The translations under genes and the position numbers were made by a program. From a virus (taxonomy: Duplodnaviria > Caudoviricetes): a DNA stretch of 64,000 nt. Positions within the stretch are counted from its first letter, which is position 1. Each line of letters opens with the position of its first letter. Of the stretch, positions 15,851-51,568 are shown in pieces. Under the pieces are notes generated by a model. It made no database searches. It had not been told where the DNA came from and saw only the letters and a list, made by a program, of their open reading frames with translations. Location: the IMG/VR virus record IMGVR_UViG_3300029288_004137, positions 32,001 through 96,000 of that record. The stretch is one strand, 5' to 3'.

Positions 15851-16184
15851 TGCAGTTTATAATAATGATCTTCAACAAGTTAAATGTCTTGTTGAAAATG
15901 GTGTTAATATTCATGTTGACAATGATATATCTTTAAGACATTCAGCACGACATGGTTATATTGATATTGTAAAATATCTTGTTGAGCATGGTGCTAATAT
16001 TCATACCGATAATGATGAGCCTTTATATTTTGCAGTATATTACAATCATTTTGATATTATCAAATATTTAATTTCTTTATATTCAATATCAGAATTAAAA
16101 GAATTAATTTTTAAATTTGATTCTTTTTATGTTAAATTCTTAATCTTAGAAAGGTTATATAATGAATCTTATAGATGCAGTTAA
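15837..16184 (+). CDS. Ankyrin-repeat protein
   Basis: Ankyrin repeats plus tail. Confidence 0.9.
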   Translation: MSLIDAVYNNDLQQVKCLVENGVNIHVDNDISLRHSARHGYIDIVKYLVEHGANIHTDNDEPLYFAVYYNHFDIIKYLISLYSISELKELIFKFDSFYVKFLILERLYNESYRCS

Positions 16185-16689: not shown

Positions 16690-17014
16690 TAATAATGATC
16701 TTCAACAAGTTAAATGTTTGGTTGAAAATGATGCTGATATTCATGTTTATTATGAAGAACCTTTACGATTGGCAGTATATAATAATTATTTTGATATTGT
16801 TAAATATCTGGTTGAGCACGGCGCTAATATTCGTGCCAGTTGTGATTGGCCATTAAAATGGGCGTTTCAGTATGGTTATTTTAATATTGTTAAATATTTG
16901 ATTTCTTGTTATAAAAAATTTGAATTAAAAGAATTGTTTTCTGAAATCAATAGTTTTTATATTAAATACTTAATATTAGAAAGGTTATATAATGAATCTT
17001 TATGTTGCAATTAA
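16667..17014 (+). CDS. Ankyrin-repeat protein
   Basis: Ankyrin repeats plus tail. Confidence 0.9.
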   Translation: MNLIDAVDNNDLQQVKCLVENDADIHVYYEEPLRLAVYNNYFDIVKYLVEHGANIRASCDWPLKWAFQYGYFNIVKYLISCYKKFELKELFSEINSFYIKYLILERLYNESLCCN

Positions 17015-17333
17015 AAAAAACGATCTTCAAAATGTTAAAAAATATCTTAAAGAAGAAAATGAAAATAATTATAATTTAATTCTACGATATGCAATATTAT
17101 ATGGTAATCTTGGTATTATTAAATATCTGATTGAAAATGGTGCCAATATTCATACTAGTATTGATTATCCTTTAAGACATGCAGCAAAACGTGGTTATTT
17201 TGATGTTGTTAAATATTTGATTTCTTGTTATTCCGATATAGAATTAAAAACATTATTATTTGAAGTTGATAACTTCTATGTTAAATTCTTAATTTTAGAA
17301 TTTTTTCAGAAAAAATTTTCAAAAAATATTTGA
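16992..17333 (+). CDS. Ankyrin-repeat protein
   Basis: Ankyrin repeats plus tail. Confidence 0.88.
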   Translation: MNLYVAIKKNDLQNVKKYLKEENENNYNLILRYAILYGNLGIIKYLIENGANIHTSIDYPLRHAAKRGYFDVVKYLISCYSDIELKTLLFEVDNFYVKFLILEFFQKKFSKNI

Positions 17334-17962: not shown

Positions 17963-18061
17963 TGCTTTGTTCCCTCACTGTTTATGCTCTAAGCATACCA
18001 TACCTCGAAACGATTGTCAAGAAAAAAACAACTGGAAATCTAATTCTATTACCTTTCTTCC

Positions 18062-18340
18062 GGTGATAGAGAAAAAGCATCATGCTTCTTAATTCTATTT
18101 ATATGTTAACTCCTTGATATTATTCAATTCACATTTTATTGTATCACTTTTCTCTAGTGAAGAGAAAAGAATCATGCTTTTTAAAATCTATTTGTATGTT
18201 AACTCCTTGATACTATTCAATTCACATTTTTTGGTATACTTTCTTTCCAGTGAAGAGAAAGAGGTATGAATTGAATATCATGTAAGTATTGTTAACACTA
18301 TGATAACATTCAATTCATACTTTTTGGTATACTTTTTCTT
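18062..18340. repeat. About 93-bp tandem repeat (2 copies plus a degenerate third) containing IHF-consensus sites
   Basis: TATCAAGGAGTTA on - strand at 18107-18119 and 18200-18212 matches WATCAANNNNTTR. Confidence 0.7.
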
Positions 18341-19085
18341 ATATAAAGCGCAATCATCTTAAGCATTAAGTTTTTAACTGTTTCTTTTCAAACCGGCTTA
18401 TCTCGTATATGATTCATTGTATCACCGTTAAATTAATTGTTTTTAATACAAAGATGATATATTCAATATAACAAAAATTGTTCAGGACCATCTCTAATTG
18501 AATTCATTGTTTTATCGCCTTCAATTGCATTTACGGAAGTTTAAAAGGCACCTGATATAATTCTGTTATAAAGCGCCTATCAAATACAATCATCATTCTT
18601 ACGTACAAGTTTAACAAGTCATGACAATTGTTAATTGTTGTATAGAACAATACTTCATTCTATTTTATCGTCAAGAAAACAGCATTGTATTTGATAGACT
18701 TATTCAATGTATTTTATAACCAATCACCTTCCTTTCAAAGAGAAAACATAAAATCATATCTTGTTTCCATTGCTTATAATAGACCATTCCACTCAAGGCC
18801 CAATGAAATCTATTGCGTCAGCTCTTGGTCAGGCTAGTTTATTTTAACGCGCTACAAGACTTTGACTTTGCTTATGTTTCTTTGTTAAAAAAAACAGTTG
18901 ACAAACAGAATCAAATGTGGTAAAATCGGATTAAATCCGATTTTTTTCTGTTATAAACCCGAAGTTATGCCATAAAATGATTCTATTTTTGTAACCATGT
19001 TAAATCATGGTACAATTTGATTGAAACATTTGGAACATTTCAATTTTATTCATAATTTAAAAGAGCGAGGGATTTACTTAATTGC

Positions 19086-24561: not shown

Positions 24562-25698
24562 TTATTGTGCTTTGAAGTTAAAGACTGGTTTCATAATGAA
24601 TTCGATATCTACAGTATCTTTGATAGAATCAATTATTCTTTGAGAATCTTTATATGCCATAGGGCTTTCATCGAGTGTATCTTTTGATATACACTTTGAC
24701 CATACATTTTCCATTGTCTTTTTAAAGGTATCCAAAGACAATGTTTTTTTGGCTTTGGATCTTGCGAGGATTCTTCCTGCTCCATGAGGAGCTGAATAAT
24801 TCCATTCTATATTTTCTTTTCCTTTTCCAATAATAATCCCATCTCTCATATTCAATGGGATTATTAAGTTTTGTCCTTTATAAGCAGATATGGCACCTTT
24901 CCTGATAATTGCTATATCTTTTTGGAATTCGATATAATTGTGGATAGATTCTATTTTAGTTCTAATTCCTTTTTGATTAAAGAAATCAATTAAAATCTTT
25001 TCTGCAATCAGTGCTCTATTAAGTTTAGCATATGCTTGAGCAATGATCATATCATCGAAGTATGCTTGTGCTTCTTTTCCTGTTAAATACTCAAGATTTG
25101 AAACACAAGGATAATTTTTAATTTCTTTGGCAATTGCTTGATGGAAATTAGCAATTCTAAGTCCAAAGTTTCTTGATCCGGTATGGATTGTAAGCCACAA
25201 TCTATCTTGATCATCTTTATCTATTTCAATAAAATGATTTCCACCTCCAAGTGTCCCCAAAGAGCACAAAACATTTTCAATGTTTTGTTCGGTACGACAA
25301 GAAATCTTTTTGATATCAGAATCAAGATAAAAATCTAATACTTCTTTAGGATTAGAATGTTTATTGAATCCTGAAGGAACGTTTTCAATAAGAAAATTAT
25401 GAAAACGCTCAAAATCTATTTCTTTCTTATCATTAATTAAATAAGAAGATACACCGCAACCAATGTCAACCCCCACAATATTCGGGATTATAATTGGTTT
25501 GAGTATGTTAATTATTGAAGTAAACCCAATACAAGATCCACTTCCTGAATGACAATCAGGCATGATTGAAATCTTGCTATCCTTAAAAACAGGATGATTT
25601 ATAAATGTTGATATTTGTTTTGAAGTTTCTTCTTCAAGATCTGAATAATCTTCTAACATAACATCTGCATTTGTATATTTCCCTTCAATTTTTAACAT
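24562..25698 (-). CDS. rtcB: RtcB family RNA ligase
   Basis: MPDCH, VGVDIGCG, LGTLGGGNHF, HTGSR, HNY, SAPHGAGR, DESPMAYK. Confidence 0.95.
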   Translation of the reverse strand: MLKIEGKYTNADVMLEDYSDLEEETSKQISTFINHPVFKDSKISIMPDCHSGSGSCIGFTSIINILKPIIIPNIVGVDIGCGVSSYLINDKKEIDFERFHNFLIENVPSGFNKHSNPKEVLDFYLDSDIKKISCRTEQNIENVLCSLGTLGGGNHFIEIDKDDQDRLWLTIHTGSRNFGLRIANFHQAIAKEIKNYPCVSNLEYLTGKEAQAYFDDMIIAQAYAKLNRALIAEKILIDFFNQKGIRTKIESIHNYIEFQKDIAIIRKGAISAYKGQNLIIPLNMRDGIIIGKGKENIEWNYSAPHGAGRILARSKAKKTLSLDTFKKTMENVWSKCISKDTLDESPMAYKDSQRIIDSIKDTVDIEFIMKPVFNFKAQ

Positions 25699-25740: not shown

Positions 25741-25931
25741 AAGTTAAAAATAGAATTCAAGGATAATCACATGTATTTATTAACGATTTTCATCTTTTTT
25801 CACACTCATATAAGATTTGAAAAAGTATCAACTTCAGAAAACAATTTTTTTAATTCTATATCAGAATAATAAGGAATAAAAATGTAAATCTTATATCTGC
25901 AAGGATTATCCTTGAATTCTATTTTTAACTT
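25741..25931 (-). ncRNA. Long-stem ncRNA carrying an ankyrin-gene-derived loop
   Basis: Perfect 28-bp terminal inverted repeat; inner 11-bp stem; homologous to 31597..31866. Confidence 0.7.
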
Positions 25932-25978
25932 TTCAAAGAACAAATAACAATATTATTGATTTGTTTCTTTTCAACGAA

Positions 25979-26344
25979 AAATTAATATTAACAAGAGGTT
26001 TTTACTAAGTATAAACAAGTTCAGTTAAAAAGACAGCTCGATCAAATCTTTAAGATTTGAACCTTTTAACAAGAGACTAATATTGTTTAAACGTCACTTG
26101 AAAAGAGAATGATAAATTTCCTCTTTCAAAGAAAAGAAATTGTTTTGTCTTTTAGGTAAATTATTTATACCATTATATTTTAAAACTTCCGGCTGTTAAA
26201 ACATATTATAACAAAGAGAGATTTATCAAAATATATTGAAAGTTATAAAATTGTATAAATCTTTAATAAAATATATCAATAAACAATTTGATTATATTTT
26301 CTACTCTTTGTTTTTTAGTAAAAACCTCTTGCTAATATTAACTT
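25979..26344 (-). ncRNA. Long-stem structured ncRNA (about 365 nt)
   Basis: 30-bp terminal stem with two G-U pairs on the - strand; internal hairpins. Confidence 0.65.
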
Positions 26345-26535
26345 CTCAAATAACAAATACAAGATTTTTCTTCTTCTTTTTCTTCTTCTTCTTCTATTTC
26401 GCTCATTAATTGATCAATTTCATATTCATTATCTGTAATTTCAGTAGTAAGACGTGAAATTTCTTCTTCAATTCTGGAATTTCTTGCTTCCAAAATCTCC
26501 AATTTTATTGTAAGCTTAATAATAGAATCTTTCAT
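26338..26535 (-). CDS. Acidic coiled-coil miniprotein
   Basis: Behind a repeated promoter and SD. Confidence 0.6.
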   Translation of the reverse strand: MKDSIIKLTIKLEILEARNSRIEEEISRLTTEITDNEYEIDQLMSEIEEEEEKEEEKSCICYLRS

Positions 26536-26628
26536 TTTATAAACCTTTCTTTTTTATGTTTTCTCAATCGTTCATGCTCTAAGCATAGCACACTTAAAAC
26601 ATGAAGTCAAGAGAAAAAGCACTATGCA

Positions 26629-26907
26629 TTATATTTTTTTATAGTCAAGAGAAAGGAAAAAATTAATTGGCAATGTGATTGTATTAAATGATATATTGAA
26701 AGTATTTTCCATATGCTCTATTATATTTTCCAGCATATCATTAACTGAAATTTCAGGAATATCAGCATTATTTATCCGATCTATATCTGGATAATCACCG
26801 CGAAAAATTTCACACAACTCTATTGATCCATCATTTACATTAGCTTTAATACAAATGGATATTCCATTAGTCATCTGAATAGTCGTTTTCATCGAAAAAA
26901 CTTGCAT
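26629..26907 (-). CDS. Hypothetical protein, paralog 1 of 3
   Basis: IELCE..GD..PDI...TLPI.FF. Confidence 0.7.
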   Translation of the reverse strand: MQVFSMKTTIQMTNGISICIKANVNDGSIELCEIFRGDYPDIDRINNADIPEISVNDMLENIIEHMENTFNISFNTITLPINFFLSLDYKKI

Positions 26908-26944
26908 TTGTTATTTTCCTTCTTTTATCTTTTTTTTTGTTGTG

Positions 26945-27262
26945 TTATGATGGATTTATTGATATATATTCATAATCCATTCGAGGTATAACATTAATAA
27001 GAAAAAAATCAATTGGCAATGTGATTGTTTCAATTGAAACATCGAAATTGAGTTTCATATGTTCTTTGATATTATTCAATAGATCATAAATTGTAAATCC
27101 AGTAAGATTAACATTGTTTAACCAATTGATATCTGGAGAAGCAAGATCACCATGAACAACTTCACACAATTCTATTGTGTTGTCCCTTGTATTAACTATA
27201 ACATTAATTTTAATTTCACTATTTACTCGAATAGTCATTTTTATTGAAGAAATTTGTTGCAT
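26945..27262 (-). CDS. Hypothetical protein, paralog 2 of 3
   Basis: Near-identical to 27325..27612. Confidence 0.7.
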   Translation of the reverse strand: MQQISSIKMTIRVNSEIKINVIVNTRDNTIELCEVVHGDLASPDINWLNNVNLTGFTIYDLLNNIKEHMKLNFDVSIETITLPIDFFLINVIPRMDYEYISINPS

Positions 27263-27324
27263 TTATTATTTCTCTTCTTTTTTTATCTTTTTTTTTCGTT
27301 GTGTTATGATGGATTTAATATATA

Positions 27325-27612
27325 TTATTCATGATCCATTCGAGGTACAACATTAACAATAAAAAAACCAATTGGCAATATGATTTTTTCAATTGAAACA
27401 TCGAAATTGAGTTTCATATGTTCTTTGATATTATTCAATAGATCATAAATTGTAATTCCAATATCAGCATTTAACCAACTGATATCTGGAGAACCAAGAT
27501 CACCACGAACAACTTCACACAATTCTATTGAATTGTCCCTTGCATTAGCTATAACATTAATTTCAATTTCACTATTTACTCGAATAGTCATTTTCATCGA
27601 AGAAACTTGCAT
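27325..27612 (-). CDS. Hypothetical protein, paralog 3 of 3
   Basis: Same family. Confidence 0.7.
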   Translation of the reverse strand: MQVSSMKMTIRVNSEIEINVIANARDNSIELCEVVRGDLGSPDISWLNADIGITIYDLLNNIKEHMKLNFDVSIEKIILPIGFFIVNVVPRMDHE

Positions 27613-28326
27613 TTGTTATTTTCCTTCTTTATCTTTTTAATTATTCTGGCATGATAGCTTTTAGAATTTGATCTGTCAAAACATCAATAACTTCTTCGCA
27701 TTTGTCTCTTTTATCGCTAAGAACACGAATTTTTTCTTTCATAGCAATTATTTCATTATCAAAGAGGAACATTTGTGTTTTATAAGATTTTACTCTAGTG
27801 AGCAATCCTAGAGATTGATCTTTTTCCTCTCGTGTAAGATCAATTTTCAAAACTTTCGACATGGATTCATCATTTTCTTGTATAAAATTTTCCATTTCTT
27901 TTTCCTTTGGTGGTGAATTTAATTAAAACAATTATCAGGATCAAAAGAATAACTTCTATCATATTCATTCGGCGAATGAATAATCAATACTGTTTCTTTA
28001 TGTCCAAAGATAAATTGATTTCTCATTTCCCATCTGAGAGAATTAAGATTGTTTTTATCTCTTACCTCAAAAGAGATCCCATTGATTTTATCAGATAAAT
28101 CAAATACTTGCATTGTCTTTTCATTTGGATCTTCTTCATTTGGAGAAGGAAAAACAAAATGAATAAAAAGACTTGAGATATCTTCGTCAATAGGAATAGA
28201 AACTTTTACCAAAGAATCACTATAATTATCCACACGGAAATGAATAATAAACAATTTATTCATTTCTTTTGCATAGGTAATTACGAATTGCGGTGAATCA
28301 ATCATTTCCATTTCTTTGTCCTATTG

Positions 28327-28620
28327 TCAATTCAAATTGTAATTCTTTTTCAAAAGAGTAGAAAGCAGGTTACAATTCGTTAGTTCTCTATCAGAGAAAC
28401 TCTTGATTTTACGAATACAATCCAAAGAATCATTGAAAAGTTTATTGCAAAGATAGGAATCAAAATTCTTATCTTTGGTTACATCATTTTTCTTCAGAAG
28501 AAAAAGAAGTCTATCTGACTCACGCTTAGCAGTGAAAAGATCAAAGCTCAATTTCTTGATTTTATTGAAAGAATCATCATACAACTTCTTGCAAAGGTAG
28601 GAATCAAAATTCTTTTTCAT
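28327..28620 (-). CDS. Hypothetical protein with internal duplication
   Basis: KNFDSYLC.KL..DS occurs twice. Confidence 0.6.
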   Translation of the reverse strand: MKKNFDSYLCKKLYDDSFNKIKKLSFDLFTAKRESDRLLFLLKKNDVTKDKNFDSYLCNKLFNDSLDCIRKIKSFSDRELTNCNLLSTLLKKNYNLN

Positions 28621-28911
28621 TTTATAGACCTTTTTTTTATGTTTTCTCAATCGTTCATGCTCTAAGCATAGCACGCTTTAAGCACAAAGTCAAGGAAAAA
28701 GTTTTGAATTTATTTCATCGCAATTATAATCTAAAAGATTTTCAATGCGATGATTTCTTTCTTTATACCCCCAGATTTTATTTGAAATTTCTTCCATTCT
28801 TTTTTCCAAAATAAAAATTTGTTCTCTATTTCGAATTTTTTCTTCAATAAGAAGTTCATTTTCATCTCTTATTTCTTCATAACTTCTTCTCATAATAAAA
28901 ACCCCTCTTTT

Positions 28912-29463
28912 TTAAAAAGAAAACAATACTGGATCTATCTTATCAGATAGTATCTCAAATAATTTCTTTGTTCTTTCGCAATCAGATGAAGCACAATGTG
29001 CTTCACCTTTGAATTGAATATTATACTTTTCACAAAGAAAATCTAGTTTTGTATTTGATTCTCCGCTATCCTTTGCCATTTCTTTTGTATCAAAGAAATA
29101 CGGAAAATTTATATTTAAATTATTTGATTTAAATAATTTATCAATAAATTCCAAATCAAATATCAGGTTTTGACCTACAAGAATATCTGATTCTTCAATC
29201 ATATCCTTAATTATATGAGATACGGATTCAAATGATTTAGCTGTTTTCTCCCATTCTTCTTTCGAATAATGATTCATTTCAAGAGCTTTCGGTGAGGCTG
29301 TTTCAATATGAGATGGAATGAATTTTACTTCAAATTTATCTAATTGATAAAGCTTTGCATTTTGTTCATTTGAAAGAACATAACGAATCATTGCCAATTG
29401 AATGATTTCATTGTCTTTTAGCACTAATCCAGTTGTTTCTGTATCAAGAAATGTAAGGATCAT
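28912..29463 (-). CDS. DEDDh 3'-5' exonuclease (DnaQ-like)
   Basis: FLDTETTG, GQNLIFD, AHCASSD. Confidence 0.88.
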   Translation of the reverse strand: MILTFLDTETTGLVLKDNEIIQLAMIRYVLSNEQNAKLYQLDKFEVKFIPSHIETASPKALEMNHYSKEEWEKTAKSFESVSHIIKDMIEESDILVGQNLIFDLEFIDKLFKSNNLNINFPYFFDTKEMAKDSGESNTKLDFLCEKYNIQFKGEAHCASSDCERTKKLFEILSDKIDPVLFSF

Positions 29464-29891
29464 TTTTATTTTTATTCCAAATGATAAGATGACTTTCAAG
29501 AGGAGAACTGATTTCCTCAGAAATTTTAATACTATCAAATATTTCTTTTGAAACATGAAGAGTAAAATATTGTCCTTTCTGCAAAGGAAGAGAAATTCTT
29601 ATTATAGCTAAATTATCTTCTCTTTCTTTTTCAATACAAATAGATACAAATTTATATGTTACTATTGGAGAACATGGTGAAAATTTAGCACAATGCTCAC
29701 TATTTACAATAATAAATATTTCATCCAAATTACAGTTTTCTTGTTTACATCTTTCAATAAAAATTTCATAATCTTCGTTATCATCAATTTTTTTTGAAAA
29801 TATGTCTTTCAAAAAAAATGATTCTTTGCGAGGATTAAAAGTACATTGAGTTAGCATTTTATTCATTCCAAATGATAATAACTAAAAATAG

Positions 29892-29964
29892 TACCCTTAC
29901 CAGGAATCGAACCTGGATTGTCAGATTAGAAGTCTGATACTCTTTCCAATTGAGATATAAGGGC
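29892..29964 (-). tRNA. tRNA-Arg(UCU)
   Basis: Arm TCAGA-CTTCTAA-TCTGA; T loop TTCGATT. Confidence 0.93.
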
Positions 29965-29968
29965 ACAA

Positions 29969-30051
29969 AATAAAGTTAAGATACGAAGTCCTAAAATGCC
30001 CTACAATTGATTTGTTTTAGGGTTTAGGTAAAAAAATATCTTAACTTTATT
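29969..30051 (-). ncRNA. Stem-loop element directly 5' of tRNA-Arg
   Basis: Perfect 15-bp inverted repeat AATAAAGTTAAGATA. Confidence 0.5.
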
Positions 30052-30107
30052 TCAACGCTTCCAATTTAAATTATGGAAGCGTAGCAGGCATTTATATTTA
30101 TACTATA

Positions 30108-30344
30108 TCAAAAAGATACCATTAACAATTCAATGACTGATTGAACATTGCTTGTTTGACAATCTTCGCAGAAATAATTTCTTGCATCAGTCTCTACTGA
30201 GTCTACAATAGAACCACAATTAGTACAAAATCCATCTGTTATACCATCAAATATCATACTTTGAATGGTATTATAAGAATATTCTGCTTCTTTTCCATTC
30301 TTTGCAATGAGAACCAAATTCCCATTAATACGATGAATAACCAT
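30108..30344 (-). CDS. Zinc-ribbon protein
   Basis: CTNCG...CEDC; SD AGGAAGG. Confidence 0.65.
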   Translation of the reverse strand: MVIHRINGNLVLIAKNGKEAEYSYNTIQSMIFDGITDGFCTNCGSIVDSVETDARNYFCEDCQTSNVQSVIELLMVSF

Positions 30345-30370
30345 TTTTATTTCCTTCCTTTTTCAATAAG

Positions 30371-30616
30371 AAAGTTAATATTAGGAAGAGATTTATATCA
30401 AGTATGAATATTAAAGATAAAGGTTTCTTTCTCTCTCAGCTCAAAGAACTTCGCTTTTCTTAAGAATATTTCATACCATCACAATACAAGACGACTAGTA
30501 TTTCCGTTATATTGTGTTCTAACGAAGAATAACATTATTCATATACTGAGATGATACATGATATAACGTATCTTTTCTTGGCTTTTTAATATAAATCTCT
30601 TCCTAATATTAACTTT
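30371..30616 (-). ncRNA. Long-stem structured ncRNA with its own promoter
   Basis: Perfect 28-bp terminal stem; TTGACA/TATGAT promoter at about 30627-30656. Confidence 0.7.
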
Positions 30617-30691
30617 TCATAGTTCAATCATACCATACTTTTTTTCAAATGTCAAGCTTTATTTTTATCAAGAAAATCACAATGTTAAAAA

Positions 30692-30870
30692 GGATAGAGA
30701 AAAGGGAACAATTAACAATTAGTTTATATTTCAAAATTAAATTTCAACCATCAAGCAATTAATGAAATTGCGGAACGTGGTATCACAGTTTAATTTTGAC
30801 TAATTTCAATATGGGTAATTAATCCATATATCCCTCATTAAAAACGAGAATTGTTCCCCTTTCTCTATCC
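30692..30870 (-). ncRNA. Long-stem structured ncRNA with its own promoter
   Basis: 22-bp stem with one G-U on the - strand; TTGACA/TATGCT promoter at about 30879-30907. Confidence 0.7.
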
Positions 30871-31521
30871 ATAAACTAAGCATATCACGCTTTTTTTCAA
30901 ATGTCAAGAAGAAAAAGCATTGGAAATGTTGTTCAGAATGTTGTATTCAAAAAACGAATTGTTTGTTCTCTGAGAAGTCCTAGATAAGACTCAAATTCTT
31001 CATCATAAAAACAATTTTCATCAATTGTTTTTTCAAATTCTTTATTTATAATAACATTGAATTGAGAATAAATATTTTCCCATAATTGAGATATAACCTT
31101 TTTTTGAAGATCATTTAACATTCTTCTACATTTCCTCTTTAAGAATATCAAGAATTCCAAGAATTTCTTCTTTTTCTTCAGAAGAATAAGAATCATAATT
31201 ATTGTTTAAATCATCAAGAACATCTTTATAAAATTCAAACATTTATTTTCAATCTTCTTCTTTTGATAGGTTAATAATATCAGCCATTTCTTCTTTAAGA
31301 GGGTTTCTCTTTCGCCTTCTTATTTCTTTTCTTTTAAAGCGGACAATACTTCTTTCCACATAATCATCACTTGCTTCTTTTTTGTTAGAATCTTCAAGAT
31401 AAGAATCTTCATCGAATCCAATGGATTCATCAAAAGCATCAGTTATGCGCTTAATCTTCTTCTTTCCCATTTAGAACATCCCTATCATTTAAACAAGTTA
31501 AACAATTAATAACAATTAAAG

Positions 31522-31593
31522 TGGAGAATAAGGGAATCGAACCCTTAAAATAAGATTGCAAATCTTATATTTTCCCAATTAAATTAATTCCCC
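31522..31593 (-). tRNA. tRNA-Ala(UGC)
   Basis: Loop TTTGCAA; G3:U70 pair. Confidence 0.93.
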
Positions 31594-31596
31594 AAT

Positions 31597-31866
31597 AAGT
31601 TAAAAATAGGATTCAAGAATAAACTTGTATTTATTAGCGATTTCTCCTCAATATCTAAAAAGTGCCCCTTACCACAAAATTGGTATTATTGACTTTTAAT
31701 TGAGAAGAAACCTGGCATATAGTGTGCCCCGTACTCCCATCGTTTTTATCATTAACCGATCTTTTGACAAGAGATGTTCTATACACTTCAAGATTTGAAT
31801 TTAAAATCTACAAAACAATTCAAGTCTTATATCTGCAAGTTTATTCCTGAATCCTATTTTTAACTT
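31597..31866 (-). ncRNA. Long-stem ncRNA forming the leader of tRNA-Ala
   Basis: 31-bp stem with one G-U; promoter at about 31878-31906; ends 3 nt before the tRNA. Confidence 0.72.
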
Positions 31867-32021
31867 TTCATGGTTCAATCATACCATACTTTTTTTCAAA
31901 TGTCAAGAACAAAATTCTACGGAAGATTCGTGCTTCACATGGAAATTAACTACTATGCCATTCTTAGCATGTTCAATTTCCATGTTAAAAAAATGAGGAC
32001 AAATTCCAGTTTTGTTTCCGA

Positions 32022-32223
32022 CAATTACATAGCGATCTCCTTTTTCTTTAAAATCCATCTGTTTTTGATAAGCAAAAACATGTACCTTTGAACAAATAGG
32101 ACAAATAGCAGAAAATTCCTTTCAATTACATAGCGATCTCCTTTTTCTTTAAAATCCATCTGTTTTTGATAAGCAAAAACATGTACCTTTGAACAAATAG
32201 GACAAATAGCAGAAAATTCCTTT
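32022..32223. repeat. 101-bp tandem duplication frameshifting a CPxC-family gene
   Basis: CAATTACATAGCG...AAAATTCCTTT occurs twice. Confidence 0.85.
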
Positions 32224-32340
32224 ACAGGAAAATAATAACATCCATAATCAATGCTATCCATGTTTATGCTTTTCCTTCTTCAACCGTTTATGCTTTAAGT
32301 ATAACATACCTTTTTTCAAATGTCAAGAAGAAAATAATAG

Positions 32341-32415
32341 CAGTGTGTATGAGATTTGAACTCATGATCCTCGACGTGACAGGCCGATGCATTAAACCAA
32401 CTATGCTAACACACT
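32341..32415 (-). tRNA. tRNA-Asp(GUC)
   Basis: Loop CTGTCAC; acceptor AGTGTGT/ACACACT. Confidence 0.93.
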
Positions 32416-32490
32416 AAAAAAATATTTCTTGAAATAACTGGAGTTAATACCAGTCTTTTTTCTTTTTTGTCAAGAAGAAAATGAATGGAA

Positions 32491-32910
32491 TTAAATTTCT
32501 TTACAAACATATAAATTTGCCGTTTCCGAATAATATCCATTGCTTGTTCCATACCATCGAATAGTAACAGATCCTTTTATGGTTCTGATATTGTAAAAAT
32601 ACCACGTTTGACTTTGACCATTAGGTTCATAACCATCATCACTATCATCCTCACTACACTTGTGTTTATAATCACAATAAGCACTGAGAATTTCAGTGTT
32701 TTCAAGATCTGACAAATCTCCACATATATCTTCAATAGATACATCTTCACAACAGTCTTGATCGTGATATTGAACATATCCCGAATTTGAATCTTTTAAC
32801 TGAAAAACAATACACTCTTTTTCATCATATCCAATATATGATTTAAAAACTTTGGAAAAAATTTTTCCTTCTAATTCTTTTTCGTCTATATATCCATATT
32901 CAGCATACAT
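32491..32910 (-). CDS. Conserved phage protein, paralog of 23638..24015
   Basis: Same motifs. Confidence 0.75.
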   Translation of the reverse strand: MYAEYGYIDEKELEGKIFSKVFKSYIGYDEKECIVFQLKDSNSGYVQYHDQDCCEDVSIEDICGDLSDLENTEILSAYCDYKHKCSEDDSDDGYEPNGQSQTWYFYNIRTIKGSVTIRWYGTSNGYYSETANLYVCKEI

Positions 32911-33641
32911 TTTTATATTTCCTTCAATTTTTAATAAGAGAAACAATGAAGTTTTTGATATTTAATATAATCCCACCATAAGATCAGTAAATCTAAATAA
33001 TCAGAATGTTTTTTACTAGAAATCATTTTAACAAATTCATCTTTTGTCCAAAGATGAAGAGACATATTTATATTATAACCCCTTCTCTTCAGAATTTGAA
33101 AAGATTTCTTTATCCATCTTTGCTTTTTTGTTATCTTTCCCTTTTTTGAAGATACCACTTCCTCTTTTTCTTGAAGAATATTCCTAATTTCTTTTTTTAC
33201 TTTCTCTTTTGGAGAGAAAGGGTATTTTGTATGGCAATAGGTTTTTATAGAATATGCTTTCATTGTATTTCTTCTTTTTCAACCGTTTATGCTTTAAATA
33301 TAACACACCTTTTTTTAAATGTCAAGAAAAAAATTCTTCAATCAAATCAACGCATTTCACTTTCTCATAAGAGAAGGATGTTTCTTCTCATCAAAGAAAC
33401 TTTTTCCATCTTTATTAAAGAAAAAAACATCTGTTAATTCTTTCATATCTTTAAAGATAATTTCACTGTTTTCTTCATCGGATTCTTTAATAATCTTCAG
33501 AATAAGACATTTATTGATTTTTCGATGCTTTTTGTTAGCAATTTTCTTATCGCCCTTTTCTGAAGAACAAGAAGTAAAACCACAAATAGGAGATTTCTTA
33601 AACGAATGAGACATCATACTCCTCTTTTTATTTATAAATAG

Positions 33642-33714
33642 TGAGACAAGAGAGACTTGAACTCTCAACTCTCGGGTTAAAAGCCCGATACTCTACCAAT
33701 TGAGTTATTGTCTC
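33642..33714 (-). tRNA. tRNA-Lys(UUU)
   Basis: Arm TCGGG-CTTTTAA-CCCGA. Confidence 0.93.
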
Positions 33715-33849
33715 GATAAATTTTCAAAGAAAAAGAGGCTTGGATTATAAGCCTAAGCCAATAATAACAAACCCCTTTTACGCAAGTTTTTCTTTTAGAC
33801 AAAAACTCGCACTTTTGATTTATTGTTGTGATAACAATAAAGAAAAGAG

Positions 33850-33921
33850 TATCGCCATGGAGAATTGAACTCCAATACTAAGCGTGAAAGGCTTATAAAC
33901 TATCCGTTGTTTTATGGCGAT
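33850..33921 (-). tRNA. tRNA-Glu(UUC)
   Basis: Arm TAAGC-CTTTCAC-GCTTA. Confidence 0.9.
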
Positions 33922-33941
33922 AAAATAACCATTAACTTCTG

Positions 33942-34014
33942 CGGATCAATTAGGACTTGAACCTAAAACCCCTCGGTTAACAGCCGAGCGCTCTACCAAT
34001 TGAGCTACTGACCC
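33942..34014 (-). tRNA. tRNA-Asn(GUU)
   Basis: Arm CTCGG-CTGTTAA-CCGAG. Confidence 0.92.
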
Positions 34015-34032
34015 TTATTATTCAATATTATG

Positions 34033-34105
34033 CGGGCCAATTAGGACTTGAACCTAAAACCTTTTGTTTTGGAGACAAATACTCTGCCAATTGAGTTACT
34101 GACCC
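34033..34105 (-). tRNA. tRNA-Trp(CCA)
   Basis: Arm TTTGT-CTCCAAA-ACAAA. Confidence 0.92.
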
Positions 34106-34112
34106 TTATTCA

Positions 34113-34355
34113 AAAATTTAAAAGAAAACATGAATATGAAAAAAAATATATCTTAAAGTATCATCATTATCATTATAAGACAACATAAATCAACATGACT
34201 TTTTTCTGCTGCAAATCTTGAAGAAACAAAATATTCAACGAGATCAAGATGACCATTTATATAAAGTAATTAAGTAATTAAAAAACAAAGCGCACCGTGT
34301 TCAACAAGGTATTTAACAACATCAAACATCATATTCATGTTTTCTTTTAAATTTT
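34113..34355 (-). ncRNA. Long-stem ncRNA enclosing tiled ankyrin-gene fragments
   Basis: Perfect 27-bp inverted repeat; interior has four ankyrin-like segments; 7 nt upstream of tRNA-Trp. Confidence 0.7.
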
Positions 34356-34370
34356 CAAATAACAAAATCT

Positions 34371-34415
34371 TGTCCGGGAGGATTCTACTCCGTTGAATAA
34401 CTATCCTCCCGGACA
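34371..34415 (-). ncRNA. GC-rich hairpin at the start of the transcript from the promoter at about 34431-34459
   Basis: TGTCCGGGAGGAT/ATCCTCCCGGACA; TTGACT-N17-TAGAAT upstream. Confidence 0.55.
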
Positions 34416-34465
34416 CGATTAACAGATTCAATTCTATCAGATAAAATTTCAAAAGTCAAGAGAAA

Positions 34466-34723
34466 AATGGGGGTTCAGCAAGAGAAACCTATCTGATTGC
34501 AGATTTTAATCTCTTTTCTAATCCTTTATTAGAACAAAGGGCCAAACCCCCATTCTGTACTCTCATTCGCAAAGAATATCAATCATATGAGATATATATG
34601 GGTTGATAATTCTTCACTTGCAAAGGTCACAAACAAGAAACGGATTATTCTGTTGTAACATTAAACATTGCTAAGTCATTCTATGCAAATCCATCTACAT
34701 TTCGAAGTAACTTATGAGAGTAC
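34466..34723 (-). ncRNA. Two adjacent structured RNA domains behind a promoter and a boxA-like motif
   Basis: Stems GTACTCTCAT/ATGAGAGTAC and AATGGGGGTT/AACCCCCATT; no ORF. Confidence 0.55.
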
Positions 34724-34806
34724 CTATAAATTTTAAAGAACAATTTTCAACTCTTCATACTCTAAGTATAGCACATTCAATTTCAAAAGTCAAGTGTTTT
34801 TTTTAG

Positions 34807-37440: not shown

Positions 37441-37765
37441 CGATGGGAAATTAATTTCCCATCGTTCTCCCTTGTGCTATGCTATAGCAAGCATAATCCG
37501 TTATTAAAAACCTAAAGATTCACGGATTTACAAAATTCTTTAGGCTTATATTGCCTGCTTAATCTACTTTACAGGAAGATAACATATGCAGGCTAATATA
37601 TGTTATCCGCTTTATTGTGTTATAAAGGAAAAACTAATAAGTGCTTTATAACACAATAAAAATGTATACTATGATAGAGATGTACGAAAAAATATGTACC
37701 TCATAGTATAGTATTAAAATTACCCGTATGGGCGACTGCCCTATTTATCAATGTGCCACGGGCAA
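37441..37765 (-). ncRNA. Multi-hairpin structured RNA between two promoters
   Basis: At least five hairpins (e.g. TTTATTGTGTTATAAAG/CTTTATAACACAATAAA); no ORF. Confidence 0.6.
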
Positions 37766-40145: not shown

Positions 40146-41378
40146 TTAACGTGGTGGTACATCATCGCTTAGCATCATACTGCCTATCGCACCACCTATA
40201 CATTTAATAGTATAACTGTCCAAATCTTTTTCAGCATTTCCACGAATATCATACTCTCTGAAAATATATTTATTCAACTTCCTGTTTTCACATGGTTTTT
40301 CATTTAATATTCTTTCATATTTTGGTTCTATCAAATTCCATATTAACTTTGAAAAATTGTGTTTATCATAAATATTAAACAATATTCCTTTGTATTTTGA
40401 TTTAACAGCATACAAAGCAAATTCTTTTTTATCATTTATATCAGAAACTTTTTGAATGATATCATTGAATTCTTTTTTAACTTCACAAAGAATATCATTA
40501 TATCTTGCTATCAAATCATCTTTCGTTTTTTCAAACCAAGTATATGATTCTTCTGGGAGATTCTTCTTTAATTCTTCCAAAGAAGAATTGTTTCTGAGAC
40601 ATTCCCAGATAACTTTATTTGAAAAATTATAAGCAATTCGATGAAGTCTTACATACTCATCGAATTTTAATTTTATTCGATAGTTATCTTCAAATTTAAG
40701 AACAAATCCCTCTTTGTTTTTTGTTTCAAATTTCTTCAAATCTTTTATATCATTAACTAATTCTGAAAAATCAAAACGATTAACAACTGAAAAGATGCAA
40801 GGAACCTCTTTAAAGAGTCCTGAATAAGATTCTTCTTTTCCTGTTTTAACATCGATTATAGAAAGAAGAATTAAATCTTCTATATCCCCATAATTTACAA
40901 CAATTCTATTTGTAGGATGAATTAATTCAAAACAATATGTTTTTCCTTCTTTAATAAAATCAAACGTTTCATTTATTTTTCTTTCAAAGATTTCTTTTGC
41001 AAGTAAAGCTTGCGAAGAAAAGAATGTTCCTCTTGTAGAAATAATGTTCTTTCCATTGTATTTAAAGATTTCAATAAAAGAACCGTCAATCTTTTCATAT
41101 ACTTCGTATTTCATGTGAGAATACTTATCGATAGATTCCTTTGATAATTCTTCATAATTAAAGAATTTCTTAAAAGGACGAGAAACAATATTCCCTTTGT
41201 TATCAATTACTAATCCTCGACAAGACTCAGTATATAAATCCCAAGATCTTGAATATGAAGCTTCATTTGTATAATTCAATATCAAAAGATCTTCAGTATC
41301 GTGCTTAACAATTGATATAAGTTTATCTTTATTATATTGTTCTATTAAATCTAAATCTATCTTATCTAAAAAAGACAT
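40146..41378 (-). CDS. T4 Rnl1-like RNA ligase with a foreign C-terminal extension
   Basis: CRGL, RPFKKFFN, motif I EKIDGS, FEL...NRIVV.Y, EGFV, IKLK. Confidence 0.88.
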   Translation of the reverse strand: MSFLDKIDLDLIEQYNKDKLISIVKHDTEDLLILNYTNEASYSRSWDLYTESCRGLVIDNKGNIVSRPFKKFFNYEELSKESIDKYSHMKYEVYEKIDGSFIEIFKYNGKNIISTRGTFFSSQALLAKEIFERKINETFDFIKEGKTYCFELIHPTNRIVVNYGDIEDLILLSIIDVKTGKEESYSGLFKEVPCIFSVVNRFDFSELVNDIKDLKKFETKNKEGFVLKFEDNYRIKLKFDEYVRLHRIAYNFSNKVIWECLRNNSSLEELKKNLPEESYTWFEKTKDDLIARYNDILCEVKKEFNDIIQKVSDINDKKEFALYAVKSKYKGILFNIYDKHNFSKLIWNLIEPKYERILNEKPCENRKLNKYIFREYDIRGNAEKDLDSYTIKCIGGAIGSMMLSDDVPPR

Positions 41379-42587: not shown

Positions 42588-43595
42588 ATGAAATTTTCAC
42601 ATTTTTCTGATATTGAAAACTCTTATAACCTTAAATTTGTTGAAAAAATTGATAAGTCTGGAGTATGGTGCGTTACTGAAAAGATTCACGGAGCTAATGC
42701 TTCTCTTTGGTATTCCTCTGAGAATGATGAATTCCGTGTAGGAAAAAGATCATCTTTTATTGATGAAAGTAATTTCTTTGGTATCAATAAGTTTTCTAAT
42801 ACTTCTCTTAAAGAGATTACTATTAATCTTTTTAACCATATTAAAAACAATTTTAATTCTGAGATTAAAGATCTTGTTATCTATGGAGAATGGTTCGGCG
42901 GATATTATAATTGTGATGGAGTATCTGTAAAAGGATCAAGAGTACAAACGGGCGTATCTTATTCACCTAATAACCATTTTTATGCTTTCTATATGAAAAT
43001 TAATGATGTTCCTGTTTCAAGAAAAGATTTCTCTGAAATCTTTAAGGATTTTGATAATAAGAATAATATATTCTTTGATTCTAAAATCCTTTTTAAAGGG
43101 ACATTTAATGAGTGCATGGAATATCCTAATGATCAGAATAGTTTTATTCCTGATATGTTTAATTTGCCTAAACTACCAAAGAATATAATGGAAGGTGTGG
43201 TTATAGAACCATATGATACGATTAAATTTACTCCCAATAATGAAAGAGTTGTTCTAAAGAATAAGAATAATCTTTTTAATGAGAAGAAAAATAGGACAGG
43301 TAAAACTTATAAAGATACTATTCTCAGTGAAAATGCAATTAGTTATTTAGAGAATATTGATTGTTATATAACAGAACAAAGAGTTGAAAATCTTTATTCA
43401 AAATTGGGTGAAGAAATGTGCTTTAAGAATTTTTCTAGTATTCTTAAAGAGTATGTCGAAGATGTTTTTAAAGATTCTTCGAAAGAAATAAATGATAATG
43501 ATTTTGAACTTAGTAGTCTTGATCAAGAAAATGTTCTTCATGAAGTAAAAAATAAATCATCAAATCTTATTAGAAATTTCTTAAAAACGATTTAA
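42588..43595 (+). CDS. Rnl2-family RNA ligase
   Basis: EKIHGAN, YGEWFGG, VQTGVSYSP, EGVVI, LKNKN. Confidence 0.88.
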   Translation: MKFSHFSDIENSYNLKFVEKIDKSGVWCVTEKIHGANASLWYSSENDEFRVGKRSSFIDESNFFGINKFSNTSLKEITINLFNHIKNNFNSEIKDLVIYGEWFGGYYNCDGVSVKGSRVQTGVSYSPNNHFYAFYMKINDVPVSRKDFSEIFKDFDNKNNIFFDSKILFKGTFNECMEYPNDQNSFIPDMFNLPKLPKNIMEGVVIEPYDTIKFTPNNERVVLKNKNNLFNEKKNRTGKTYKDTILSENAISYLENIDCYITEQRVENLYSKLGEEMCFKNFSSILKEYVEDVFKDSSKEINDNDFELSSLDQENVLHEVKNKSSNLIRNFLKTI

Positions 43596-46170: not shown

Positions 46171-49100
46171 ATGATATTAACTGGCAAAATGTATAAATAT
46201 TTCTACAATAAAAATTACTATTATCTTTATCTTGAAATAGATAGAAATTGGTTTATAAACAACATTCTACCTAATTTACCACAATGTTATAAATGTTTTA
46301 AATGTAATACTGAAAAAGATTGTCTTTTTTTATATAATTGCAAACATAAAATTTTTTGTTGTGTTCCTTCTTATCAAGAAGAATTTAAATTAATAGAAAA
46401 ATTGGATAACATTAAATGATATTAACTGGAAAAATTTATACTTATAAAAATGAAAACAAAACCAATCTTTATCTTGAAATAAATAAAAATTGGTTTTTAA
46501 AAAACCTATTAAAAGATCTTTTTTTTAAATGTCGTGACTGCATAAAAAAGAATAAAGATAATTGTCTTTTTTTGTATTTTTGTAAAAGTAAAAGATTTGA
46601 TTGTTATCCTAAAAATCCAAAATTTAAATTAATAGAAAATAATATTGTTGGATAACATTTAAATGATATTAACTGGAAAAATGTATACTTATAAACCAAA
46701 AATATATATTTATAAATCAAATGAAAATGAAAATAATGTTTATTTTCATCTTGAAATAGATAAAAATTGGTTTATAACCAATATTTTGTCTAATATACCA
46801 CAATGTTCTAATTGTAATAATATAAATAAAAATAGTTGTCTTTTTTTATATTCTTGTAAATTTAAAAATTTTTTTTGTGTTCCTCTTGTTTCTCTTTCTC
46901 AAGAAAATTTTAAATTAATAAAAAAATTAGGTAGTAATTAAATGATATTAACTGGCAGAATGTATATATACCATTCAAATCTTTATAATTATTACTCTTC
47001 TTTTCCTACTGATGATATGTATGTTTCTCTTTATCTTGAAATAGATAAAAATTGGTTTATAAAAAATATATTGAATTTGAATTATGTTCGTACTCATTTT
47101 GTGTGTAGTGACTGTACTACAAAAAGAAACAAAAGTAACTGCTTTTTTTTATATAGAATTAAATCTAAAAAATTTGTTTGTTATCCTGAAGATACAAAAA
47201 TCAAATTTGAATTAATGAAAAATACTATTTTGGATAACATTTAAATGATATTAACTGGTAAAATGTATACTTTTCAAGATAACTATCTTTATCTTGAAAT
47301 AGATAAAAATTGGTTTATCAAAAACGTATTAAAAGATCTTTATCTGTGTGGTGACTGCATAAAAAAGAATAAAGATAATTGTCTTTTTTTATATTCTTGT
47401 AGATTTAAATATTTTCATTGTACTCAACTTTCCTTCTGCTATGAAATAAAATTAATAGAAAAATTGGATAACATTAAATGATATTAACTGGAAAAATGTA
47501 TGTTTATAAACAAAGTGAAAATAATGTTTATTTTCATCTTGAAATAGATAAAAATTGGTTTATAACCAATATTTTGTCTAATATACCACAATGTTTTAAT
47601 TGTAATAATGTAAATAAAAACAGTTGTCTTTTTTTATATTCTTGCTTATATAAAGATTTTCATTGTACTAACGTTCCTTCTATTATGGAATATAAATTAA
47701 TAGAAAAATTGGATAACACTAAATGATATTAACTGGAAAAATGTATGCTGCTGAGTATCCAATTTTATTCTCTCTTATTAAAGATGTGCATTTATGTATA
47801 TGCCTTGAAATAGATACAGATTGGTTTAGAAAAAATTTATTAAATAAAAATCCAGCATGTCAATTTAATAAATGTGAACATTGTAGTATTTATAATTTAG
47901 GCAAAAAATGTTTGTTTCTTTATAATATACAACATAAAAGATTTTATTGGTATTATCCTAAACATTTTAATTGCTTTGAGAAATATTATTATAATAGTGA
48001 AGACATAAAATCTAATTTATCTGATCTTCTTCTTCTTCCTACTGTTTATATAAAGGAAATTAAATAATGATATTAACTGGCAAAATGTATAAAAAATGTT
48101 TCTACGATAATACAAACCATATTCCTCTTTATTTTGAAATAGATAAAGATTGGTTTTATAAAAATGCATTACCAAATATTATTGCATGTTATAATTGCGA
48201 TGAAGATTGCAATAAATATAAAGAAAAAGAAAAAGATTGTCTTTTTTTGTATTCTTTTGATTCTAAACGTTTTAATTGTGTTCACTATCCTTCTACTCTG
48301 CAATTTAAATTAATAGAAAAATTGGATAACATTTAAATGATATTAACTGGTAAAATGTACGCTTATAAACAAAGTAAAAATTATGTTTATTTTTGTCTTG
48401 AAATAGATAAAAATTGGTTTATTACAAATATTTTACCTGATTTACCACGTCATTGTTTTGATTGTTTTAATACAGATAAAAATAATTGTCTTTTTTTGTA
48501 TTTTTGTAGTTATAAAAAATTTAATTGTTTTCAAAAAAAAAGTAATTGTTTTAAAGAAATGGTTTGTTCTAAAAAGAGTAAAAATTAAATGGTATTAACT
48601 GGCAAAATATATACTTATAAACCAAGTGAAAATGATGTTTATTTCCATCTTGAAATAGATAAAAACTGGTTTATAAATAACATTTTGCCTAATTTATTAC
48701 TATGCTATAAATGTAATACTGAAAATAGTTGTCTTTTTTTATATAATTGTGAATTTAAAAGTTTTTATTGTGTTCCTCTTGTTTCTCAAGAAAAATTTAA
48801 ATTAATAGAAAATAATATTGTTGGATAACATTTAAATGATATTAACTGGCAAAATATACACTTATAAAAATGATAAAAATAATGTTTATTTCCATCTTGA
48901 AATAGATAAAAACTGGTTTATAAATAACATTTTGTCTAATATACCACAATGTTTTGATTGCAATAATGTAAATAAAAATAGTTGTCTTTTTTTATATTCT
49001 TGCTTATATAAAGAATTTCATTGTACTCACTTTCCTTCTACTATGGAATATAAATTAATAGAAAAATTGGATAACATTAAATGATATTAACTGGAAAAAT

Positions 49101-50114
49101 TTATACTTATAAAAATGAAAACAAAACCAATCTTTATCTTGAAATAGATAAAAATTGGTTTATAAATAATATTTTGCCTAATTTATTACTATGCTATAAA
49201 TGTAATACTGAAAATAATTGTCTTTTTTTATATAATTGCATGTTTAAAATTTTTTGTTGTGTTCCTCTTGTTTCTCAAGAAGAATTTAAATTAATAGAAA
49301 ACATATAATATTGGATAAAATCTAATGTCTATTATAGATAAAATACATAAAAAAATAATGATAAAATTTAAAAAAGGAAATCTATTTTTTGATAACTTTT
49401 TTAAAAGATTCTTTATAGTAGTAGATATCTGTGATAAAAAACACAAATTATCTTATCGACATTGTAAAAAATGTAATAAAAACTATGCTCTTCCAAATGC
49501 TAAATGTTATTTATCGTATTATTTTAATAAAAATGATTCATATTTTCGTTGTAATACTGAACTCTATCTTTTAAAAACTTTTAAAAAAAATAAATTAAAA
49601 AATGAAAACAATTCTCACAGGTAACATATATAAAGATTTTTTTGTTGTTCCACATCTTTATCTTGAAATAAATAAAAACTGGTTTATAAAAAATAAGTTA
49701 AATTTGGATAGGATTGGTATAGAAAATATATTTGATGAATATTGCGAAAATTGTAATGCCACTTTTAAAGGTGATTGTTTATTTTTATATGGTATTAAAT
49801 CTAAAACATTCTTTTGTGATAAAAAATCATTTTATGATAAAATTGGAGTATAAAATTAAATGATTCTTACAGGTAAAATGTATAAAAGCGAATCAAAATA
49901 TTTTGATTCATCAATATCAAAAATTTATCTTGAAATAGATAAAAATTGGTTTATGGATAATATTATAATTAAATATGAATATGCTACGTGTTTTAATTGT
50001 GTTCGACTTAATAATCAATGCTTATTTCTATATGATTTACAAGACAAGAAATTTTTATGTGAAAAACCACAACTTCAATATTTTTATAATGAAATAATAC
50101 AAAAAAATGATTAA
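46171..50114 (+). repeat. Tandem array of 14 Cys-rich MILTGK-family CDS (46171, 46416, 46663, 46942, 47245, 47478, 47723, 48067, 48337, 48589, 48836, 49081, 49602, 49860)
   Basis: MILTGK.Y...LEIDKNWF...CxxC...CLFLY...F.C in each. Confidence 0.9.
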
Positions 50115-51568
50115 TAAAAACAATTATAAATTAGAATATTATGAAAATCTTGGATTTGTTATAAATATAACAGATCAATATAAAGATGTTCCTACAAAAG
50201 AAATAAAAAAAATATGTGAAAATAGATTTTTTAATATGAAGCATCCAGATTATGGATCAATCTACCATTGCAGAGAATGTTATTTAGGAAATGGATTCTT
50301 ACTTGCCTATAGTTTTTTACTTGATAAAATAATATGTTTATGTGTTTTGATAAAACTGATGAAAGACTAGATATAAATGAATAACAATAAATTAGAATAT
50401 CATGAAAATCTTGGATTTTTCATAGATATAACAGATCAGTATAAAAATCTTCCAACAGAAAAAATAAAACAAATATGTGAAAATATGTATTGTACTGAAA
50501 ATACTCTCTATAAAAAATTTTCTGCCCCATATAAAAACAATATGCTTAACTATTTTTTTATATGTCAGCAAAATCAATGTTCTTTGGGAGATAAACATAA
50601 CAGACTTATTTATAGTTTTGATTTTAACAAAATCGTATGTATGCATTTACATTTAAAAACTTCTAAAATTACTTATATAAAATGAATAACAATAAATTAG
50701 AATATCACAAAAAATTTGGATTTTTTATAGATATAACAAATCAGTATAAAAATCTTCCAATAAAAAAAATAAAAAAAATATGTGAAAAAGAGTATTTTTC
50801 TGATTATAAACCCTGTATAACAGATTTTTCTGATTCACACGATATATTTAACTATTTTTTTGTTTGTATATGTCAAGAACAATGTTCCTTGGGAGATAAA
50901 TATAACAGACTTATTTATAGTTTTAATTTTAACAAAATCATATGTATACGTTTTGATAAAACTGACAAAGAATCAGATATAAATGAATAACAATAAATTA
51001 GAATATTATGAAAATCTTGGATTTGTTATAGATATAACAGATCAATATAAAGATCTTTCATTAAAAAAAATAAAAAGAATATGTGATAATCAGTATTATA
51101 CTAACTCAATCAGTTTATCAGGTTTTTTCTTTAAATGTTGTGATACATATTGTTCTTTGGATAATGGACATAATAAACTTGTTTATAGTTTTGATTTTGG
51201 CAAAATCATATGTGTAAATTTATTTGTTTTGCATTCAGAAATTTTTGGATTTGATAAATATGAAAAAAATTAACAATAAATTAGAATATTATAATCATCT
51301 AGGTTTTTTTATAGATATAACAGATCAATATAAAAATCTTCCAATAGAAGAATTAAACAAAATATGTAAAAAACAATATTTACACGATATTATGATACGT
51401 ACATATGATTCTAAATATACTTTTTCTTTTTGCCATTGCATAGCATGTTGTTTAGTTTCTAAGAAATATAAACTTGGTTATAGTTTTACTCTTAAAGATT
51501 TTATATGCCTTACATTAGAAGAATCTTTAAATACAAATATTAAAAAAGGAAACAAGAATGAATTTTAA
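50107..51568 (+). repeat. Tandem array of 5 KLEY..NLGF.IDITDQYK-family CDS (50107, 50377, 50682, 50983, 51260)
   Basis: Conserved N-terminal motif plus Cys residues. Confidence 0.88.

Follow-up and report, generated by a model that had tools for sequence, protein, structure and literature searches.

A predicted rRNA-leader-like RNA cassette with sense fragments of a phage's own ankyrin genes in its loop

Immediately upstream of a tRNA-Trp gene on the minus strand of a phage genome, a long inverted repeat encloses fragments of the ankyrin genes of the same phage, and the locus raises the question of whether it encodes a stable RNA whose loop has a function or preserves what is left of ankyrin genes that collapsed there. 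Coordinates are those of the window, the whole 64,000-nucleotide stretch analysed, which corresponds to bases 32001-96000 of the genome. The genome is complete (209,974 bp, 28% GC, terminal repeat present) and encodes a T4-like capsid protein, 22 tRNAs and a phage RecA, and sequence matching the phage is contained in landfill and groundwater data. It holds around 30 ankyrin genes, 29 of them found by HMM, with 50 full 30-residue repeats.

The stem-closed element and its ankyrin pieces

The perfect 27-bp inverted repeat at 34113-34139 / 34329-34355 that a sequence-only reading of this locus had noted is present, and on the minus strand it forms the core of a 34-bp closing stem (34362-34329 with 34139-34106), in which the 27 perfect pairs are joined by seven more, including two G-U pairs. 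The longest perfect inverted repeat in eight locally shuffled genomes measures 14-17 bp. The TTGACT-17-TAGAAT promoter (34459-34431), the GC hairpin (34420-34366) and the boxA-like motif that the same reading had placed upstream were all recovered; its spacing of 7 nt to tRNA-Trp is correct for the perfect core, but for the extended stem the gap is 0 nt. The element and the genes from which its pieces come comprise the following features.

34431-34459, minus strand: sigma70-type promoter with an extended -10 (10/12 matches), of the same type as the phage's other promoters
34366-34420, minus strand: GC-rich leader hairpin in the boxB position, directly 5' of the boxA-like motif; hairpins occupy the same position in the rRNA loci L111 and L114
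34352-34365, minus strand: boxA-like motif, overlapping the start of the closing stem and aligning with rRNA leaders
34329-34362, minus strand: 5' arm of the 34-bp stem, containing an ATG (34340) that resembles ankyrin gene starts
34292-34326, minus strand: S1, 35-nt sense ankyrin piece, phase 54-88 (49 bits; best gene 31/35)
34256-34281, minus strand: SC, sense piece of the family's C-terminal motif (17.7 bits, within genome background; 23/26 bases of two genes)
34225-34258, minus strand: S2, 34-nt sense piece, phase 44-77 (33 bits; best gene 28/34)
34189-34224, minus strand: S3, 35-36-nt sense piece, phase 25-59 (34 bits; best gene 29/36)
34148-34176, minus strand: S4, 29-nt sense piece, phase 7-35 (25.5 bits; best gene 25/29)
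34106-34139, minus strand: 3' arm of the stem, in which 34137-34125 is a possible, marginal sixth ankyrin piece (phase 1-13)
34032-34105, minus strand: tRNA-Trp, its 5' end flush with the stem
3327-17333, plus strand: main ankyrin gene arrays, the source family of the pieces, with 19 of the 29 HMM-found genes

Cleavage by RNase P at tRNA-Trp would set the 3' end of the RNA. An Rfam scan of the element gave no match. Contigs from a second study that span 33979-34388 show zero differences from the record, and two further assemblies are identical to it across the 34106-34362 element, which is thus not an assembly artefact. Single SNPs are the sole differences in the ankyrin genes between independent assemblies, so these genes are nearly invariant.

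The four ankyrin pieces named in the sequence-only reading lie where it put them, in sense orientation, and reach 49, 33, 34 and 25.5 bits when scored with a profile built from 50 real repeats; 398 of 400 random 190-nt windows contain no segment of at least 20 bits, and the other two contain one each. Their repeat phases begin at 54, 44, 25 and 7, the descending order proposed. The count of four is nevertheless too low, as SC is a fifth piece in the loop and the 3' arm perhaps holds a sixth (34137-34125; 13 nt, 15 bits), marginal in score, whose phase 1 would continue the descending order; an 11-mer of it occurs eight times in ankyrin genes, twice in stem arms and nowhere else in the genome. 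The interior had also been described as lacking a continuous ORF, and in fact a single frame, interrupted by one stop, runs through S1, S2 and S3. That the pieces are close to the family without being identical to any gene is borne out (best matches 81-89%), but they lie no closer to the consensus than real repeats do (percentiles 29-92), and optimisation towards the consensus is not supported. SC includes an 8-nt tandem duplication (34281-34266).

Together S1-S4 span 82 of the 90 repeat positions and, with the sister element described below, also much of the C-terminal motif, whereas the translation start and ribosome-binding region of the ankyrin genes are not represented among the pieces. 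All pieces are sharp-edged and in sense orientation, and despite four or five out-of-phase junctions they match the family as well as real repeats do, so that several joins were made out of phase with no point decay visible. Differences between pieces and genes are neither adenine-specific nor biased in a wobble direction (G-for-A 7, C-for-T 7), and the element's private alleles have frequencies of 0-6% in the ankyrin genes. The C-terminal motif was detected solely in this phage and in one 85% relative, which indicates that the pieces derive from the phage's own lineage. A role of the private alleles as fold stabilisers was considered and is not supported, an apparent S2-S3 compensatory pair having failed to hold up. 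Elsewhere, a 26-nt ankyrin-like stretch between tRNA-Asn and tRNA-Glu (33947-33922, minus strand) scores 23 bits, within genome background.

A family of stem-closed elements and its likeness to rRNA leaders

The ankyrin-loaded element is one of five with stems of 28-34 bp, all of them minus-strand features within 25741-34362. The other four, and the gene that follows the sister element, are these.

25741-25931, minus strand: sister element with a boxA-like motif, a 28-bp stem and an inner 11-bp stem (25896-25886 / 25818-25808)
25976-26347, minus strand: family member with a boxA-like motif, a 33-bp stem and a structured interior
30371-30616, minus strand: family member and paralog of 25976-26347, with its own promoter, a 31-bp stem and a structured interior
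31597-31866, minus strand: sister-element paralog; its interior is structured and non-ankyrin, and its 31-bp stem runs from near a promoter start site to 3 nt before tRNA-Ala
24562-25698, minus strand: RtcB RNA ligase, directly downstream of the sister element (Pfam RtcB, E 2e-62)

Two of the elements begin at promoters, and in three cases the stem stops 0-3 nt short of a tRNA. Six stems together contain eight imperfect pairs, every one of them G-U when read on the minus strand, and two paralog pairs of stems differ by paired changes; for this comparison the paralog arms were aligned by BLAST, MAFFT having misaligned the 3' halves of the sister element and its paralog. The first ten or so arm bases are common to several elements and the arms otherwise differ between members. 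Sequences of the boxA-like class occur three times in 420 kb (both strands), each time at the 5' edge of a stem element. Two shorter stem-closed elements lie on the same strand at 29968-30052 and 30692-30870 (16 and 22 bp), the first ending 3 nt before tRNA-Arg.

The inner hairpin of the sister element encloses a 62-nt sense piece of the ankyrin C-terminus (25881-25820; 64 bits, BLAST E 2e-12), where the counterpart hairpin in its paralog at 31597-31866 has a short loop, and the piece looks like an insertion into an existing scaffold. In a genome-wide profile scan (210 kb), these two payload loops were the only strong ankyrin-like DNA outside ankyrin ORFs. Both are unstructured (z +0.9 and 0.0), in contrast to the folded interiors of the three sibling elements (z -2.3 to -3.3). 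Fragments of other gene families were sought in the sibling loops and none were found, and mimicry of rRNA fragments in the same loops stayed at chance level. Three RNA ligases, RtcB, Rnl1 and Rnl2 (24562-25698, 40146-41378 and 42588-43595), flank the RNA cluster, and they could act as circularisers of the stem-closed RNAs.

The arrangement of these elements resembles the leader and spacer regions of bacterial rRNA operons, which likewise combine a promoter, a hairpin, a boxA-like motif, a long helix that pairs the ends, and then a tRNA (PMC10250234, PMC11404451). In such operons boxA recruits NusB/E (PMC10250234) and brings in the antitermination complex (PMC10250234, PMC11404451), and leader-trailer helices are cleaved by RNase III (PMC11404451, PMC10250234). 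Among GTDB genomes a 20-mer of the boxA-like motif gave 20 hits, three of which lie 40-180 nt upstream of 16S or 23S rRNA. The first 20 or so bases of the rRNA leaders L111, L114 and L121 match the phage elements, with two differences in the first 20 bases between the element and the leader motif in L114/L121, and in L121 the arm pairing with the 23S trailer itself begins with the 20-mer. As in the operons, boxA lies at the 5' edge of the helix and a long minus-strand RNA helix pairs both ends, but the phage helices are nearly bulge-free and enclose 135-306 nt of phage RNA rather than rRNA; neither 16S nor 23S rRNA, nor any rRNA-like sequence above chance, was found inside the elements.

Taken together, the boxA motif upstream of rRNA in bacteria, the arm-trailer pairing in L121 and the known processing of leader-trailer helices suggest that the cassette works like an rRNA leader, with NusB/E binding and RNase III cleavage expected by analogy. 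No RNase III match was found in the phage genome, so trimming by this enzyme would need that of the host. Because the stem starts in a boxA-like motif that also starts bacterial rRNA leader-trailer helices, a host-processed stable RNA is likely, and the promoter, the boxA-like motif, the strand-specific G-U pairs in six stems, the compensatory differences between paralogs and the three stems 0-3 nt from a tRNA argue that a discrete processed stable RNA is probably produced from this rRNA-style cassette. Three Clostridia genomes (L109 5320, L113 2657, L122 4549) have in common a boxA-led hairpin-like element downstream of a promoter, which is not near rRNA and has no Rfam match. Of the three rRNA leaders that match the motif of the phage, two (L114 3363, L121 3847-3866) belong to Sedimentisphaerales (Planctomycetota), a weak hint at the host that a host search did not support: among the 251 genomes of the order with the best-matching rRNA leaders, with two candidates scored per genome, the matches listed were tRNAs only.

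Explanations for the ankyrin loop

The unusual part of the element is its payload, the ankyrin pieces in the loop, rather than the scaffold, which looks like a natural cassette for a stable RNA with a swappable single-stranded loop. The function that fits best is that of a family-wide target-mimic decoy, a speculative reading to which we hold only tentatively. Host RNA polymerase would start at the 34459-34431 promoter, the leader hairpin and boxA-like motif would recruit the host's rRNA antitermination factors, and the 34-bp stem would form like an rRNA leader-trailer helix, with RNase P cutting at tRNA-Trp and RNase III possibly trimming the stem. The product would be an abundant, end-protected RNA of ~200-260 nt whose loop, on this account, would be under selection to present, in single-stranded form, 26-36-nt sense pieces taken from the ankyrin genes of the phage, and would not be leftover filler; the chances that the payload is selected rather than filler we consider evenly balanced. 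Such an RNA would soak up RNA-guided or otherwise sequence-specific factors, among them host crRNA or Argonaute complexes and antisense RNAs, that would otherwise strike some 50 ankyrin repeats simultaneously. The decoy is favoured by pieces that are sense, near-matching instead of exact, exposed and clear of translation starts, and by the lack of a phage-encoded effector among the families searched. However, fragments would be a poorer sponge than a contiguous copy of the repeat, the pieces show no optimisation towards the consensus and their mismatches lack a wobble direction. A target mimic could also trigger type III or VI immunity instead of titrating it.

About equally likely is that the loop is an inert relic. 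Here a boxA/leader-trailer cassette would once have bracketed one or more ankyrin genes that serial deletions then collapsed, the stem and boxA being kept for the downstream tRNA operon. Such a collapsed pseudogene was the null hypothesis of the sequence-only reading, and several observations speak for it: the ATG in the 5' arm (34340) resembles ankyrin starts, S1, S2 and S3 lie in one frame with one stop, SC joins the S1 frame once the 8-nt duplication is removed, two abutting junctions show 3-5-nt microhomology, and the sense orientation of the pieces would be automatic. A genuine collapsed-repeat ankyrin ORF exists elsewhere in the genome (19415-19630, minus strand), with 71 residues, three collapsed ankyrin-like repeats of 20-22 residues and its own promoter; its lineage differs from that of the main family. 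On the other hand, terminal-type pieces precede internal ones, so the relic requires at least two to three source genes, together with at least four out-of-phase deletions, almost without point decay, of which no excess is seen. Deletion between repeats normally preserves phase. Nor does a relic explain the second capture in a dedicated hairpin of a paralogous scaffold, or the lack of ankyrin debris elsewhere in the genome.

The pieces might instead act as guides, sense RNA pairing with the template strand of the ankyrin genes by way of the RecA of the phage or an unrecognised effector, so as to repress the family or steer recombination between its repeats. We regard this as improbable, even though the pieces are guide-sized (29-36 nt) and lie in open loops, the phage encodes RecA, and many of its ORFs have no family assignment. 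The RNA-guided nuclease that a guide function would call for was sought in the genome and the TnpB/Cas12f, Piwi (Argonaute), IS110, Nop and RAMP families all remained without a match; the cognate recombinase or nuclease gene of a bridge RNA (IS110) or omega RNA (TnpB) is accordingly not found. There is no repeated handle between the pieces and, by eye, no common PAM-like flank, and R-loop-compatible mismatches are not in excess. CRISPR mini-arrays and the TIGR arrays of phages also place several variable, guide-sized pieces on one transcript, but the phage pieces are self-derived and overlapping, and have neither intervening repeats nor a RAMP or Nop partner that could be found. Inside the element there is no repeat family, no hit to a CRISPR repeat model and no tandem repeat unit of the kind that TIGR-Tas systems have.

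The sense orientation is likewise that of a DGR template repeat, a non-coding sense copy of part of an element's own genes, and the a1/a2 stem that closes a retron RNA resembles the closing stem seen here. Even so, a template role, whether in DGR- or retron-like diversification with a reverse transcriptase supplied by the host or in gene conversion, as had been proposed, is very unlikely: no reverse transcriptase (PF00078) was found in the complete genome, the differences do not fall at adenines, private alleles are rare in or absent from the genes (0-6%), and only single SNPs separate the nearly invariant ankyrin genes of different assemblies. Unlike the copies of a DGR, which are near-identical outside adenines, those of the phage are fragmented and 81-89% identical, and no Rfam match to a retron msr-msd RNA was obtained. 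We attach very little probability to a functional plus-strand transcript that would pair with the ankyrin mRNAs as an antisense regulator. A weak plus-strand promoter-like site is present at 34136-34164 (9/12), but sites of such strength are common (26 found, 13 expected), and the seven C-for-T differences that would become G-U pairs are matched by equally frequent G-for-A differences that would be mismatches. The translation-start regions are not covered by the pieces, and stem wobbles, strong promoter, boxA and tRNAs all indicate the minus strand. The strand specificity of the G-U pairs also tells against an element acting at the DNA level, a reading we judge very unlikely too, in which the inverted repeats would bound a miniature cassette, mobile or invertible, that acquired gene fragments. 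The shared first ~10 arm bases of several elements would fit such ends, but the arms differ between members, no target-site duplication is seen, searches for tyrosine and serine recombinases gave no match, and the orientation is constant in all assemblies, with no strand-switch joint among the matches listed.

Considered as a whole, a family of rRNA-style cassettes, two of them loaded with overlapping fragments of a self gene family that act as target-mimic decoy or as guides, and without counterpart among the families tested, is a description whose chances we put slightly short of even. If the loop is functional, it would explain how the phage affords some 50 near-identical repeats, all of which a single host guide could hit. 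If it is a relic, the locus would be a clear snapshot of gene collapse within an rRNA-type processing cassette, of modest interest.

Known RNA systems, relatives and other features of the genome

GOLLD- and ROOL-type RNAs are associated with phage tRNA clusters. Like the element described here they are non-coding RNA genes (bioRxiv 10.1101/2024.12.08.627333; PMC5737381), but the phage element is much smaller, has no Rfam match and carries an unstructured, gene-derived loop. Racrs (RNA anti-CRISPRs) are phage small RNAs that mimic the CRISPR repeat (PMC10651486), and the decoy would share with them the proposed titration of RNA-guided defence through mimicry by a phage small RNA. It would differ in mimicking the target, the phage's own mRNA, and it contains no repeat-like unit, so that a functional loop, whether a target-mimic decoy or a self-directed guide RNA, would represent a strategy distinct from that of the repeat-mimicking Racrs. 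For Y RNA and Ro60 no TROVE match was found, and the sole YrlA hit is sub-threshold and lies on tRNAs.

Pattern scans for the element gave 0 hits in viral contigs and five in metagenomes, all due to chance, and BLAST against phages and plasmids returned nothing relevant. The closest relatives by capsid protein are 55% identical and lack the motif, the loci examined in other ankyrin-rich contigs show no comparable stems, and the proteins neighbouring the element are singletons. A relative of the phage does exist in sample ERZ28594027, as shown by contig L123, in which positions 1-752 are probably chimeric, an ankyrin gene of an 85%-identical relative being fused to unrelated AT-rich DNA.

Several other features of the genome were recorded. 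On the minus strand, 34466-34760 (z -5.1; no match in an Rfam scan) and 37441-37765 (z -7.3) are non-coding blocks that fold strongly and are driven by promoters, and about 1 kb without a long ORF (18060-19080, minus strand) contains a tandem array of three hairpin-bearing 93-nt units (18086-18335) as well as a 14-bp stem (18577-18697). On the plus strand, 46171-53090 holds more small paralogous genes, arranged in tandem families of 14, 6 and 5 members, none of which is represented in the RNA loops. At L009 14450-15061 (genome 26450-27061) the 5' UTR of a 349-residue gene and its own coding region, 332 nt downstream, contain the two arms of a perfect 24-bp inverted repeat, and three units of ~87 nt with GC palindromes lie just upstream of it. 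An exact 101-nt tandem duplication at 32022-32223 is missing from the independent assembly L143 and is probably an artefact of the record's assembly. The first DnaE ORF is split by a one-base difference (L010 ~13853, genome ~109853) and is intact, with 502 residues, in three other assemblies.
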